In this document: positions 3,001 through 9,000 of the stretch, piece by piece | How the letters are laid out: each line of letters opens with the position of its first letter | Numbering within the stretch: position 1 is the stretch's first letter | Origin: a virus | Lineage: Duplodnaviria; Heunggongvirae; Uroviricota; Caudoviricetes | Virus record (IMG/VR): IMGVR_UViG_2880406838_000004 | Length of the DNA stretch: 57,859 bases | Strand: one strand, 5' to 3' | Position numbers: made by a program

Positions 3001-6000
3001 ATTGATGCCGAGATACGCTTCCAGTCTTCGCGGTCGTTGTCGATAACTTCATTTTTCGCCCAGCGATGGATGCTGCCGTCAATGTTTCCGGCATCCACAT
3101 CACCAGGCCAGAGAGCGTAGGCCAGTTCGTCATCCAGTGTTTTCCATGTCTGCTTGTATTCGCGATGAGTGGCAGCAATGACCTGGCTGATTTTTCCTGT
3201 TGAATTTTCAGTGTTCTGTTGATTGGCTCTGGCGCGGGCGAGATCAACAACAGACGTGTATTTTCCGGTTTCCTTGCGTTCACCTTCGCGACGTTTTTTC
3301 CAGATGCGCATCTCTGCCTGAATTTCGGGCCATTTGGCACCAGGCTTACATTTATGCTTAACCCACCCGATGGCGTGCAGCTTAAGCTCCGGATACATGG
3401 CGTTAACTTCTGGCATTTTCATCAACGCTTCAACGATATGTCCGTCGAATGTTGCCATGTCTTCCTGCAACAATTCCTGCGCGCTAATCACCATATCAAC
3501 GGTGATGTTTTCACATGTGTCGAACTTAACCATGACAGCGTTCTGTACTTCAGGGGCCAGCTTGTCAAAAGTGACGTTCATCGGATCTGATTCAGTCTCG
3601 ACCGGGACAAAGGAAGCAGACGCCTCATCCCAGCGGTTTTCCTGCATATATTCAGCATCCCAGGAATCGAGGGCAGGGCGGGGTATACCGGGTTTATCCT
3701 CGCAAACAAGAAATTTATAAGCGCAGTCCTGAGCAGCCGGATAATGTTCCAGGAATTGCCAGTGAAATTTTGCGCGGGCGCGACGTTCATCACCGGCTTC
3801 AATGGCAGTGGCTACAGCGACGGCACCTTCTTCCTTTATTGCCTGTTCGTCCGGAATGGCGGCGCAAATAAAGACTTTACTCATTTTGTTTTACCTCATT
3901 ACAGATTTAAGGGTGAACAAATCCCTGCCATTGCTGGCATATAAGAATGAAATCGGATGTTTATTACGGAACTGTTTTAAAGACCTGCCGGGATTTCGTT
4001 ATTATCCTGGTGAATAACTTTATCGACCGGGTAACAGTTACCGGGAATTTTCTGTTCGGTTGCTGCAGTCACACACTCCTGCATTGTCCTGTGAACACTG
4101 ACTGCAATATCAACTGGCTCTCCGGAAACAAGAAAAACTGTCAGAACAAGTGCAAATGCTGTATTCATTGCCAGCATCCTTTTTGTATCGGACGTAAACG
4201 GGCCAGCATTGAAAGAATGCATATTTTATTTAATAGCTCCCGTTCGTGTTTTCTCTTGTTAATGGCATCTTCAGTAAATACAGGGTTACTGATAGTGACA
4301 CCAATTTCAAAACAACCTTCAGACGTATTAACGTTTGGTAATAACGTTTCCATTATCGCGTCCTCAACAATGAATTTTGTGATGCGGTGCCTGGTGCCTC
4401 CAGGTGACGTTAACCAGTTAACAATTAACGCCGGATACAGAGAATCCACCCATAACACTGTTTTTGGTTTTAACTGTTCCGCGTGCGCTCAGCCGCATTC
4501 ACCGCATCACAAAATTCACTTTAAAAAGGGCGGCAGAGCAGTCACGGAGTAAAACTGATACCGCCAAACGTCACCAGAAAATTGATAACAGAGGGCGTTG
4601 CAGCGGGGTTGTCACTTAAGCGTATGGTCAACCTGACAACCCGGTGTCCTCAACGGGGGAAGGAATAACCCCTCCATACTTACCGCCGCGCCATTTCGCG
4701 TTATGGTCTGACTTTTCAGGGAAATATCCTTTCAGTAAACTGTCAGTGCCGTATGCTCACCCGTGTCCGGCGCACGCACTCCACCTCACCCGTGGAGAAC
4801 TCCTTAATTACCAACCTTAGCTTCGTTGGTTAGCTATTAACGCGGGTATGTAATCATTCTGGCAATGCTTAATGCCGCTGCTTTTTCCAGATTGGTGATA
4901 TCCTGCTCCAGAGCGGACAGATTTTCAGCCTGCTTAGCCCTGGCTTCATTGGCCCATTTCAGATCCTGCGCTGCATTAATTTTCTGGTGCATCCACTCAT
5001 AAAGTTCATCATCGGTATAGTCTGGCGCGATGATGACGGGTTCTCGTTTCTGCATGTCGGCTCCTTGTGGTTAGCGTTGCCTGCTTTTAACCACGTCAGG
5101 CGAGGTGGTATCCTCTGAGGGGTCTGTTACTCGAGAGGAAATTGGTTATGAATACAATCAAGTTTTCTTGCCCAGAATGTGGTGGCGAAGTCTTTGACAC
5201 ATCCTTTAAGCCGCAGGGCTCTGACAGTTTCGCGGGAGCCATCTGCAAAAATTGTGGTTCACCTTGTAAACTGAAGATGAGTCCTCGCAGTTCGATGACG
5301 AAATCGTTGACAATATCTTCGGTGCACTCACCAGAGACTTTCTGAAGTAAAGGCGCATACCGCTTAGTTACCGCTCTGATAACTCTTACCTGTCCTGCAA
5401 TGGCGCTGATGTCAATATAAAGCGCCATTGCTGCTTCTTTGCCGATCCCGGGATGCCTTCCATTCTGATGTTTGACTTCGCCCACTGAGAAACCCTCTGT
5501 TTCCCCTTAACGCCGGGGTAGCGGAACAAAAACCTGCTGCATAGTTATTAAAGTTGAACCCTGCCGTCATGTTCATACGCCTCGGGCTGGCTACTTAACC
5601 CCTGACCACTGCCGGGTAACTCGAAGTATTTCCCTGCGTTCTGTGGGGCGGGGTGGGTTGGTATTTTTAGTTTAATAAACATTAAACTTAAGTCAAGTAA
5701 AAACTAAACCGCGGGACATAACAAACACAACGCTTTTGATAAAGTCGTTGCGGTTGTTATGTTTCTATTGGTAGTGAAAGTTAGGGAAACTGGCGTCTTG
5801 CGTGGATCACGTTTACTACTTCAACGCTTGATGTTGTTACGCGGTATAGAATTATATAGTTAGGGTGGGCTACAATCTCACGCAAGCCAGGTACTCTGTC
5901 GCTTGGTGGGTATAAATACGGATGTTCGGATAACGGCAGCACACAACCCCTTAATCGCTGCCATAAGCGTTCAGCCGCATCTATGTCGAAACGAGCAATA

Positions 6001-9000
6001 TAACTAGTTATATCATCTAGGTCGGTATCTGCGCTTTCAAGCCATAACACGGGTAACATTTTACTGCTTGCTCCGTTCCTTGCGCATCTTAGCAAAGCGT
6101 TCTGCCATTCTGCGCTCAACTTCGTCATGGGGAATTGCTGGGCGCGGATCTGCAAGGCTCGTTGCTACTTTCGCACGCAGCCATTCGTTGTAACTGTTTT
6201 CTTGTTCAATGGTTTCAAATTCAGAAACCATTGGTGAAAGGGCTCTATTCATGTTTCCTCCGGTTTTATAACTCAGGCGCGGCGGCATTTTTGCGCCGCA
6301 ATCCATCTCGCTATGAGATCTTCCATTGATTCTTTTTTCTGCTTTAACTCGCTGATTATCTGGCGTTGCTCATCCTCAGGGAAGGCTGAAAAAATCTGCA
6401 ATAATTCCAGTTGATTAGACGTTAACCCTGCATGTGGTGGAGAAACCCCCGGTTGTTCTGCGTATTCCGCATCCAGATACCCTTCCGGCATCCCGTATGT
6501 TTGCTCTATTCTTCTGGCAGCTTTTTCTCCAAACGAGGCTCTCCCACTCATTAGTTGAGATAGGTAGCTCTTCTCTTTGGGTGGCAGAGTTTTATCTTTA
6601 AACCACTCCTTGAGACGTAAACGGCGAATTTCTTTTTTTTGCATGTGGTAATTATCTTTAGTAATCACTAAACAAGCAAATACTTGACTTAATGGTTTAT
6701 TAAACACTAAACTCGCAAAAAAACACTAAACCGAGGAAGGTATGACATTAAAAGAGTTTATTAAATCATTAAGGGTTGGTGATGCTAAGAAATTCGCGGC
6801 CAGACTTGGTGTATCGTCATCTTACTTATCGCAAATGGCGTCTGGACGAACAGCTATATCTCCAACCCGCGCCCTTATGATCGAATCTGCGACGGAAGGC
6901 CAAGTAAGTAGGGCGGAGCTACGACCCCATGATTGGGAGCTTATTTGGCCTGAGTATGCGAGCGGCATTCGTTTGGGGCAAACACATGTAGTTCATGCTG
7001 AAGGTGATTGTAGTGCATGCTTATCTGATGGAGTTGATTCATGAAAATCAAGCATGAACACATCCGCATGGCGATGAATGTCTGGGCGCATCCGGACGGC
7101 GAAAAAGTACCGGCTGCGAAAATTACCAAAGCGTATTTCGAGCTGGGAATGACGTTCCCGGAACTGTATGACGACAGCCATCCGGAAGCCCTGGCCCGTA
7201 ATACCCAGAAAATTTTCCGTTGGCTGGATAAAGACACCCCTGATGCTGTTGAAAAAATGCAGGCTCTGTTACCGGCGATCGAAAAGGCGATGCCGCCTTT
7301 GCTGGTGGCCCGTATGCGCAGCCACAGTTCTGAATATTACCGTGAGATCGTCGAACGGAGGGATCGGCTGGTGAAGGATGTCGATGATTTTGTTGCGTCA
7401 GCGGTTGTTTTGTATGACCAGATGAATCGCGGCGGCCCGGCAGGGAATGCTGTGGTGATGCACTAAAAGCACGGTGTTCGGGGGTTTTATGAGCAGCAAG
7501 CTTCATGGTCTTGTCTGGGAAGGGTGCGCCTTCACCGGCATGATCTTATCCAGGGTGGCGGTTATGGCCCGTCTTGCAGACTACAGCAATGACGAGGGCG
7601 TGTCATGGCCTGCCATTGAAACTATCCGGCGTCAGATCGGTGCAAGAAGTGAATCCACAGTGAAATCGGCTATTGCAGAACTGGCGAAAGAGGGCTGGCT
7701 GACGAAGGAAGAGCGTAAGGTCGGTGGGCGTAATGTAAGCAATATCTATCGGCTTAATGTGGAAAAACTCGAAGCAGCTGCTGCGGCGGCGCGTGAGTCA
7801 TATAAACCGAAAAGAAAAATTAGCCCGGCAAAAAATGACCCGTTAACAGTTGACCCGTCAAATATTGACCCCTCAACGGTTGACCCGTCAAATTTTGATG
7901 GATCAACTGTTGATAAAAAACTGCCGATTAGGGGGGCGATGATTGACCCCGATCCGTCAGTATTAAAACCTGATCCGTCAGATAAAAGATCTTCTTGTCC
8001 GGACGCTTCGCAACCGGACCCGCAGACGGCTGAACAGGATTTTTTAACCCGACACCCTGACGCGGTTGTGTTCAGTGCGAAAAAACGCCAGTGGGGAAGT
8101 CAGGAAGATTTGGTGTGCGCGCAGTGGATCTGGGGACGAATCGTGAGTCTTTACGAGCAGGCGGCCAGCGATGATGGCGAGATCACTAGACCGAAAGAAC
8201 CCAACTGGACAGCATGGGCCAATGACGTTCGCACAATGCGGATGCTGGATGGCAGAACTCACAGACAAATTTGTGAAATGTTTGGGCGTCTCCAGCGGGA
8301 TTCGTTCTGGGTAAAAAACATCATGAGTCCGGCAAAACTCCGGGAAAAATGGGATGAACTGGTTATCCGCCTGGGGCGTTCGCCTGCGCAGCGTTGCGTG
8401 AATCACATTTCTGAACCGGACACTGAAATTCCGCCGGGCTTCAGGGGGTAAGTGTTAATTTCTGGTCATGAGGTAATTTTCAGGAGGGCTTGTGGCAAAA
8501 GTTTTTACACAAGAAGAGCAGGAGAAAATTAAAGGGCAGGTTGTTGAACTCGTACGCCAGAGTGGGCGCGAGACGTTACGACAACTGGAAACTAAAACTG
8601 GGGCAACAAGATATCTGATGAGCGTTCTGGCCAGAGAGCTGGTTGCCAGTGGCGATGTATACAACTCTGGTTACGGGTTATTCCCGTCTGAACAGGCGCG
8701 TAAGGACTGGCAAAATGCCCGTAAAAAGCTCTCAAGGGCAAAGCTGAAGAAACCATCTGCGGTTGATCCGGACCTTATCTGGTCATTACCTGACGGAGAA
8801 ATACGTCGCTACGACAGGCGTCTGAACATAATCTGTCTCGAGTGCCGGAAGAGCGAAGTTATGCAGCGCGTACTGGCGTTTTATCAGGGGAATTTTGAGG
8901 AGGTGTGAACCGCCCCGGGTTTCCTGGAGAGTGTTTTATCTGTGAACTCAGGCTGCCAGATCATCGTTTCCGATGGAAGCATAATAAGCTTTTTCTGCTT

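Follow-up and report, generated by a model that had tools for sequence, protein, structure and literature searches.

The paaR2-paaA2-parE2 module in a probable lambdoid prophage of O111 Escherichia coli: operators, relatives and toxin-antitoxin cargo

What kind of locus places a toxin-antitoxin (TA) pair directly behind a phage-type repressor gene, encloses both between two inverted copies of one operator/promoter sequence, and what does the pair do there? This question is raised by positions 5660-6741 of the virus record IMGVR_UViG_2880406838_000004 (IMG/VR; Caudoviricetes), a stretch of 57,859 nucleotides that was analyzed at its full length and is called the window in the following. A tool-less reading of the raw sequence, here referred to as the original prediction, had described a helix-turn-helix (HTH) repressor gene followed by a TA pair and had likened the arrangement to the immunity region of phage lambda. 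We found that the module is the published paaR2-paaA2-parE2 system, in which a lambda-CI-like repressor is co-transcribed with a ParE-family TA pair between operator regions resembling the right (OR) and left (OL) operators of lambda. The system is already known in detail from structures, footprints and reporters and is not new.

Very probably the region is a lambdoid prophage's immunity module, residing in the chromosome of O111 enterohaemorrhagic E. coli (EHEC); prophage CP-933P (Sp12) of E. coli O157:H7 has it as well. O111 EHEC chromosomes, e.g. that of strain RM9322, match the first 25 kb of the window with 100% DNA identity. The module is placed between the exonuclease/dicB arm and the replication genes of the prophage, and the five open reading frames (ORFs) of the immunity region are all intact. 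The module spans 2.1 kb, and of 5426 complete E. coli genomes 591 have it at a coverage of at least 80%. Its features are:

5663-5712, minus strand: OL-like region with the leftward promoter PL933P (promoter scan: -35 TTGACT at 5696-5691, -10 TAAACT at 5674-5669)
5716-5762, minus strand: stem-loop (inverted repeat I2, 22-nt arms, 3-nt loop) between the parE2 stop codon and the -35 of OL/PL
5781-6059, minus strand: parE2, 92-aa ParE-family toxin
6061-6252, minus strand: paaA2, 63-aa antitoxin, with a GGAGG ribosome-binding site 5' of the ATG
6273-6644, minus strand: paaR2, CI-analogue repressor of 123 aa with an HTH N-terminal domain and a leaderless mRNA (ATG at 6644, stop at 6273)
6645-6741, no strand: OR region of 97 bp with OR1-3/IR1-4 and divergent promoters
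6742-7044, plus strand: ydaS, Cro analogue of published function (Pfam PF15943 and HTH_3)
7041-7466, plus strand: ydaT, CII analogue (Pfam PF06254)

All 12 primers listed in the supplement of Jurenas et al. 2021 (mBio, PMC8630535) map onto the window, each of them exactly and uniquely. The fragments used there for electrophoretic mobility shift assays (EMSA), footprinting and reporter assays could therefore be placed on window coordinates by primer mapping:

5663-5780: PL reporter (PL933P-gfp), containing the "second inverted copy" of the original prediction
6595-6783: footprint probe
6644-6717: PR reporter
6645-6741: EMSA probe (FL1/FL2), identical to the OR region
6950-7069: PRE reporter

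The paaR2-paaA2-parE2 operon and its operators

The coordinates given in the original prediction proved right throughout: a repressor gene running from 6644 to 6273, then a 63-aa antitoxin and a 92-aa toxin whose ATG (6059-6057) lies one nucleotide (6060) past the antitoxin stop codon TAA (6063-6061), a tight antitoxin-toxin coupling. Searches with hidden Markov models (HMMs) and against the PDB also bore out the assignment of the two small proteins as a ParE/RelE-like toxin and its putative antitoxin. The 92-aa protein matches Pfam PF05016 ParE_toxin over the full 89-position profile (positions 1-89; 1.9e-16, 60.9 bits with a cut-off of 23) and is 100% identical, in 92 of 92 residues, to ParE2 in PDB 5cw7_B; the protein was also crystallized as 5cze and 5czf, and weaker matches were obtained to Caulobacter ParE1 (3kxe). 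The 63-aa protein matches PF21217 PaaA2 (70.7 bits against a cut-off of 27, 1e-19), is identical to PDB 3zbe over residues 2-63 and is identical to PaaA2 in 5cw7.

Within Pfam, PaaA2 was matched by the PaaA2 neutralizing motif only; no HTH, ribbon-helix-helix or AbrB match was obtained. This agrees with the published statement that PaaA2 carries no DNA-binding motif and that regulation is exerted by PaaR2, YdaS and YdaT (PMC8630535). A DNA-binding domain in the antitoxin and a TA complex acting as main autoregulator, the marks of a canonical type II system, are both missing from PaaA2-ParE2. Since PaaA2 has no DNA-binding domain and regulation comes from PaaR2, YdaS and YdaT, the locus is a three-component TA variant, as published. 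Its first description, as a tripartite TA locus in E. coli O157:H7, is credited to Hallez et al. 2010 by reviews and PMC8630535.

Residues 1-66 of PaaR2 are identical to PDB 7nkv, 8c3k and 8c3l, entered as 'Phage repressor protein CI', which represent the PaaR2 N-terminal domain. The full 123-aa product gave no Pfam match, the S24 (LexA-like) autocleavage domain included. PaaR2 works like CI, yet by its C-terminal oligomerization domain it is not a member of the CI/LexA family.

Upstream of paaR2, the OR-like region contains the three CACTAAAC repeats of the original prediction, at 6666, 6705 and 6724. The whole 57.9-kb window holds one further copy (1.1 expected; 2 of 100 shuffles reach four copies). 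The promoter scan placed PR933P on the plus strand as TTGACT-N18-TAAACT at 6684-6713 (-35 at 6684-6689, -10 at 6708-6713), again as predicted. PRM933P points leftward with its start at 6644; from the sequence and the published start its hexamers are probably TTTGCT (6680-6675) and GATAAT (6657-6652). As in lambdoid phages, a repressor gene and a cro-like gene diverge from a short region with overlapping promoters, about three repeated operators and palindromes. A CII-like activator and an establishment promoter (PRE) are likewise present: the YdaT OM operator TTGATTCATGAAAATCAA lies at 7034-7051, at PRE933P, with TTGATT-N6-AATCAA as a single exact match in the window.

A second, inverted and leftward copy of the promoter/operator sequence had been claimed for about 5660-5712. 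The copy is real, but its spacer is not the one found at PR: PL933P reads TTGACT-N16-TAAACT at 5696-5669 on the minus strand, i.e. with 16 instead of 18 nucleotides between the hexamers. A perfect 12-mer, TACTTGACTTAA, occurs in the whole window only at 5688-5699 (minus strand) and 6681-6692 (plus strand), with 0.16 expected. When OR is locally aligned with OL in reverse complement, the score is 41, whereas the maximum over 3480 other 66-nt segments of the window is 38. Four of the nine GTTTAGT half-sites of the window fall into OR and OL, which together make up 163 bp. The likeness of OL and OR is well above chance and the duplication of the operator/promoter is statistically real. OL contains repeat units at 5674-5687 and 5696-5709 and the inverted repeats I1, I4 and I11, so that a second operator/promoter set (OL/PL) lies past the repressor operon and faces away from it, as expected for a lambdoid immunity region.

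What these elements do has been established on CP-933P, described as a cryptic lambdoid prophage with paaR2-paaA2-parE2 in its immunity region (PMC8630535). There, paaR2 and ydaS are separated by 97 bp containing PRM933P and PR933P, both mapped by 5' RACE (rapid amplification of cDNA ends); the paaR2 mRNA is leaderless with transcription starting at the ATG, and N-terminal sequencing gave MQKKE. OR comprises four 18-bp palindromes with the half-site consensus GTTTAGTAA and three operators, OR1-3; in addition to EMSA, DNase I footprints extend over about 78 bp for PaaR2 and about 65 bp for YdaS. PRM is activated by low and repressed by high amounts of PaaR2, and PR is repressed by PaaR2; in green fluorescent protein (GFP) reporters PaaR2 and the Cro-like YdaS each repress PR933P, PRM933P and PL933P. 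PL933P lies beside the TA operon with OL1-3 and -35/-10 hexamers identical to those of PR, and is repressed about 100-fold by either protein. The paaR2/ydaS switch is bistable, and PaaR2 shows no response to mitomycin C and is not SOS-inducible (all PMC8630535). YdaT activates PRE933P, which yields an alternative transcript of the paaR2 operon (PMC8630535, PMC9986795). PaaA2 is a labile protein that ClpAP/ClpXP degrade. The TA pair acts as an addiction module: it causes post-segregational killing and stabilizes a mini-F plasmid as well as ccdAB does (PMC8630535).

The functional claims of the original prediction agree with these data. Repressor-coupled TA expression corresponds to the CI-like action of PaaR2 on OR seen by 5' RACE, EMSA, footprinting and GFP reporters (PMC8630535), and the suggested prophage-stabilizing role to the killing and stabilization just mentioned. 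The lambda-like order OR - cI - rexAB - OL/pL is matched by the published OR footprints and the repression of PL933P, and a paper from 2023 states outright that paaA2-parE2 "replaces rexA and rexB" (PMC9986795). The evidence thus supports the earlier reading as correct but not original. As a discovery the locus matters little, with the operon, its operators, PL/OL, the CI/Cro/CII analogy, the rexA-rexB statement and addiction all in print. Its value is one of calibration: reading raw sequence without tools recovered a model that needed footprinting, 5' RACE and reporter assays to be established.

In the model established by the literature, PaaR2 takes the role of lambda CI, binds the repeated GTTTAGT-type operators in the 97-bp OR region and represses PR with the cro-like ydaS and the cII-like ydaT, and it stimulates its own leaderless PRM transcript at low level and represses it at high level. 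YdaT turns on PRE and with it the alternative operon transcript. The transcripts from PRM and PRE both run on into paaA2-parE2, which makes the TA pair a repressor-linked cargo at the place of lambda rexA-rexB. In the window they may end at the 5716-5762 hairpin just before OL. About 1 kb away, the inverted PR-type block (OL/PL, 5663-5712) would put the leftward early operon under PaaR2. Octameric PaaR2 may bridge OL and OR and thereby close a loop around the operon, looping being a suggestion also made in PMC8630535. It is likewise established in the literature that PaaA2 neutralizes ParE2 by direct binding and that loss of the locus frees ParE2, induces SOS and kills the cell; such addiction stabilizes the immunity region.

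The hairpin at 5716-5762 is a tentative candidate for the terminator of the paaR2-paaA2-parE2 transcript, comparable to tIMM. Its RNA fold reaches -25.1 kcal/mol (z = -4.85), and none of 200 shuffles folds as well. At this position diverged loci form hairpins unrelated to it in sequence; that of locus L063 is a canonical terminator complete with U-tract. The hairpin of the isolated phage Evi carries only three substitutions and still folds (z = -3.15); the two in the outer stem keep G-U pairs on the plus strand and give C-A mismatches on the operon sense RNA. The word 'terminator' occurs 0 times in PMC8630535 and the hairpin is not mentioned there. As a separate observation, a weak match of the sigma-70 type (TTGATA-16-TATGTT with TG upstream) lies inside the hairpin on the plus strand at 5736-5763.

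Several points weigh against the picture drawn so far. The window represents an O111 prophage and not CP-933P itself, although its module sequence fits every published reagent. Support for PaaR2 acting at OL comes from in vivo repression of the PL reporter, whereas EMSA and footprints were made on OR (PMC8630535). With regard to the toxin target, ParE2 is reported neither to bind GyrA59 nor to inhibit gyrase; it nevertheless induces SOS (PMC8630535). In both expression states ParE2 activity went undetected (PMC8630535), which bears on the natural trigger. The 5716-5762 hairpin has no U-tract directly after its stem, and the stem substitutions of Evi do not keep pairing on the sense strand, a weak point since the changes are too few to decide. 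Because of the missing adjacent U-tract and the C-A mismatches on the sense RNA of Evi, the terminator role is uncertain.

Comparison with named systems places the locus closest to that of CP-933P (Sp12) in O157:H7, with which it shares the proteins, the primers, the 97-bp region, the MQKKE leaderless start, the PR/PL hexamers and the YdaT OM operator. The host context differs: the window holds a sister prophage with the same immunity cassette, and no functional difference was found. With the lambda immunity region it shares the order and orientation of the genes (OL/PL - rexB - rexA - cI - OR/PRM/PR - cro - cII), two sets of three operator sites, a leaderless mRNA for the repressor, a PRM activated at low and repressed at high dose, a competitor of the Cro type, an activator of the CII type at PRE, a repressor that forms octamers and a cargo expressed in the lysogen between the repressor gene and OL. 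What differs from lambda is that the proteins are not homologous in sequence to CI, Cro, CII or Rex, that PaaR2 has no S24 domain and is not inducible by SOS, that a ParE TA pair and not RexAB forms the cargo, and that OL and OR are about 1 kb apart. In lambda this distance is about 2.4 kb.

Canonical parDE systems (RK2, Vibrio cholerae ParDE2) have in common with the window a ParE-fold toxin, an antitoxin gene directly upstream (with a 1-nt spacer in the window), a labile antitoxin, post-segregational killing and SOS induction. They differ in that PaaA2 lacks a DNA-binding domain, which makes transcription dependent on a separate phage repressor, and in that ParE2 is reported as gyrase-negative. 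The regions of Qin (dicA-dicC/dicBF) and Rac (racR-ydaS-ydaT) in K-12 share a repressor gene diverging from a Cro-like gene, the YdaS/YdaT pair and a leftward operon with ydfC, the DicF small RNA (sRNA) and dicB. Neither of the two is known to carry a TA pair behind the repressor gene. YdaS and YdaT of K-12 Rac are only 26% and 31% identical to those of CP-933P (PMC8630535).

Relatives of PaaR2 and the slot behind the repressor gene

We scored the neighboring genes of 107 loci encoding relatives of PaaR2, which fall into four groups. In the first, with repressors 98-100% identical, paaA2-parE2 follows about 20 nt downstream wherever the locus extends far enough. The same arrangement was found as a separate hit in phage Evi (LR597642), whose entire paaR2-paaA2-parE2/ydaST module has a DNA identity of 95.8%. 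Here parE2, at 3382-3660 on the minus strand of the extracted locus (L002) and equivalent to window 5781-6059, is intact and unannotated in the GenBank record, and ParE2 is 100% conserved. Provided that Evi is able to lysogenize, it would allow work on the module in a live phage, perhaps a better system than a cryptic prophage.

The second group consists of heteroimmune variants in IMG/VR contigs (L055-L066), with repressors 71-74% identical and diverged operators, which carry the same TA pair at 89-96% amino acid identity. An extra 131-aa regulator with an XRE-type HTH is located between the repressor gene and paaA (e.g. L059, 2501-3813); over its last 46 residues this regulator shows 52% identity to residues 74-119 of PaaR2. 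Two regulators with one common oligomerization domain might form mixed oligomers. The four-gene variant is rare, reaching a coverage of at least 80% in 17 of 5426 complete E. coli genomes. As to its relation to the published paaR1-paaA1-parE1, the only O157 strain among the 12 matches listed is O157:H16.

The 'ARWIAAQK' tail of PaaR2 had given rise to the idea that the three-gene operon arose from the four-gene variant by recombination between homologous C-terminal coding regions. This origin by deletion was rejected because in a global DNA alignment paaR2 aligns with the CI-like gene through the stop codon and the second regulator forms a clean indel of about 460 bp before the paaA ribosome-binding site, with no internal junction. 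In the alignment with the heteroimmune variants the TA genes reach 82-93% nucleotide identity compared to 55-80% for segments of the repressor gene, mostly 67-78%. At these identities the TA cassette is better conserved than the surrounding immunity genes, in keeping with a published proposal by which addiction safeguards the region when immunity is swapped.

Repressors of the third group (43-57% identical, about 120-130 aa) come from Xenorhabdus, Photorhabdus, Arsenophonus, Morganella, Raoultella and others. Most loci keep the divergent YdaS-like gene; no PaaA2 or ParE2 homologue was detectable in any of them, and the slot downstream of the repressor gene holds unrelated genes or none that was recognized. 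In Photorhabdus caribbeanensis (L095, 3040-4598, plus strand) a HipA_2 kinase gene and a DUF3037 gene, overlapping by 4 nt, directly follow a repressor gene whose product is 50% identical to PaaR2; they match the PADLOC candidate defence system PDC-M66A/B. Because these relatives mostly keep the cro-like gene and have no detectable PaaA2 or ParE2, the comparison supports the view that the TA pair is a mobile cargo in a variable slot.

The fourth group comprises proteins of about 210-220 aa in which only the N-terminal domain of PaaR2 is found (61-76% identity, the upper value over PaaR2 residues 1-58), fused to Peptidase_S24 (PF00717). Examples are L100, L102, L106 and L108 from Erwinia, Mycoavidus, Acerihabitans and a Neisseriaceae bacterium, with repressor ORFs starting near 2465-2501; several adjoin YdaS-like genes. 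Judged by their domains these are classical SOS-cleavable CI-type repressors. Since the N-terminal domain of PaaR2 is 61-76% identical to theirs, PaaR2 looks like a CI-type repressor of a true phage-repressor lineage, in which the SOS-sensing C-terminal domain has been swapped for a small oligomerization domain. The classification of the locus is unchanged by the four groups.

Exclusion, stand-alone toxin-antitoxin system or relic

The position of the TA pair at the place of rexA-rexB also suggests a function in excluding other phages, which the original prediction had considered. A superinfecting phage might halt transcription or speed up PaaA2 turnover, ParE2 would be freed and the cell would die before phage release. 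The lability of PaaA2 under ClpAP/ClpXP would suit such a trigger, the HipA_2/DUF3037 pair (PDC-M66A/B) in Photorhabdus indicates that the slot can carry cargo of the defence type, and PMC8630535 leaves the biological role of the TA pair open. However, PaaR2, PaaA2 and ParE2 are all without any PADLOC match, and in the literature we found no phage-defence phenotype of paaA2-parE2 or CP-933P; the words 'exclusion' and 'abortive' are absent from PMC8630535. With RexAB the window cargo shares expression in the lysogen from a place between the repressor gene and OL, but it has no sequence relation to RexA or RexB, its only Pfam matches being ParE_toxin and PaaA2. In addition, the retention of the pair is sufficiently explained by addiction, which has already been demonstrated. 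We therefore consider Rex-like exclusion unlikely. It is equally doubtful that paaA2-parE2 is an addiction module and a functional counterpart of RexAB at once, in which case the interval between PaaR2-type repressor genes and OL would be a general slot for defence cargo.

According to the view of 2010, the locus would be a stand-alone three-component TA system with PaaR2 as dedicated regulator (a 'split antitoxin') and an incidental likeness to phage immunity. Its first description as a tripartite TA locus agrees with this, as does the need for a separate regulator when PaaA2 has no DNA-binding domain; the rare variant, in which a second HTH regulator with the C-terminal domain of PaaR2 (52% over 46 aa) stands directly 5' of paaA, points the same way. 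But PaaR2 represses PR (ydaST) and PL besides its own promoter, homologues of its N-terminal domain are fused to the S24 autocleavage domains of classical phage repressors, and the 43-57% identical homologues, mostly with a cro-like partner, have no detectable TA pair. The module is moreover embedded between the exonuclease/dicB arm and the replication genes and occurs in the isolated phage Evi. The stand-alone view is already largely refuted and we regard it as very improbable. That the module is a decaying relic, no longer functional in a prophage riddled with insertion sequences (IS) and conserved through recent clonal descent, deserves hardly any credit: three IS1203 copies in the window, a frameshifted first ORF past PL and the cryptic state of CP-933P (PMC8630535) would fit it, but none of the five ORFs of the immunity region is disrupted, published assays show the proteins to be active, the module is present in 591 of 5426 complete genomes, Evi has kept it at 95.8% DNA identity with an unchanged ParE2, and in heteroimmune variants the TA genes are better conserved than the repressor gene.

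Leftward operon and further elements of the window

The immunity region with PaaR2 as CI-like repressor has a leftward PL operon that contains the frameshifted ORF, ydfC, DicF, dicB and an exonuclease gene. If repression by PaaR2 is lost, the cell-division inhibitors encoded there should be set free, as in the Qin prophage. At gathering thresholds Rfam gave no match within 5400-7500; the nearest one is DicF at 4528-4579 on the minus strand (76.7 bits). The ydfC gene is located at 4837-5055 (minus strand), and dicB further to the left according to the O111 annotation. The first ORF past PL (5096-5485, minus strand) is frameshifted relative to the 118-aa version in L059 and L063 and is a RefSeq pseudogene in O111; at the equivalent place the Evi record annotates an ORF of about this size (~118 aa). 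Fully overlapping it on the plus strand, an ORF at 5142-5345 would encode a 67-aa zinc-ribbon-like peptide with CPxC...CxxC; in L059 and L063 this peptide is intact with 68 aa. Either of the two strands may be the one that is really coding.

Outside the immunity region we noticed three identical frameshifting pseudoknots of the apical loop-internal loop (ALIL) type, all on the minus strand (9764-9880, 14174-14290 and 22206-22322), which correspond to three copies of an IS3-family element. These are annotated as IS1203 in the matching genomes; one of them follows closely to the right of the replication genes, in keeping with a degraded prophage. A match to the sok antitoxin RNA at 13111-13286 on the plus strand (Rfam RF01794, 119.8 bits) points to a second TA locus in the window, of the type I hok/sok kind. 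Finally, a cluster at 18840-19451 comprises two tRNA genes (18840-18912 and 18996-19069), the sRNA STnc100 (19182-19390, plus strand) and the anti-GcvB sRNA AgvB (19392-19451, minus strand).

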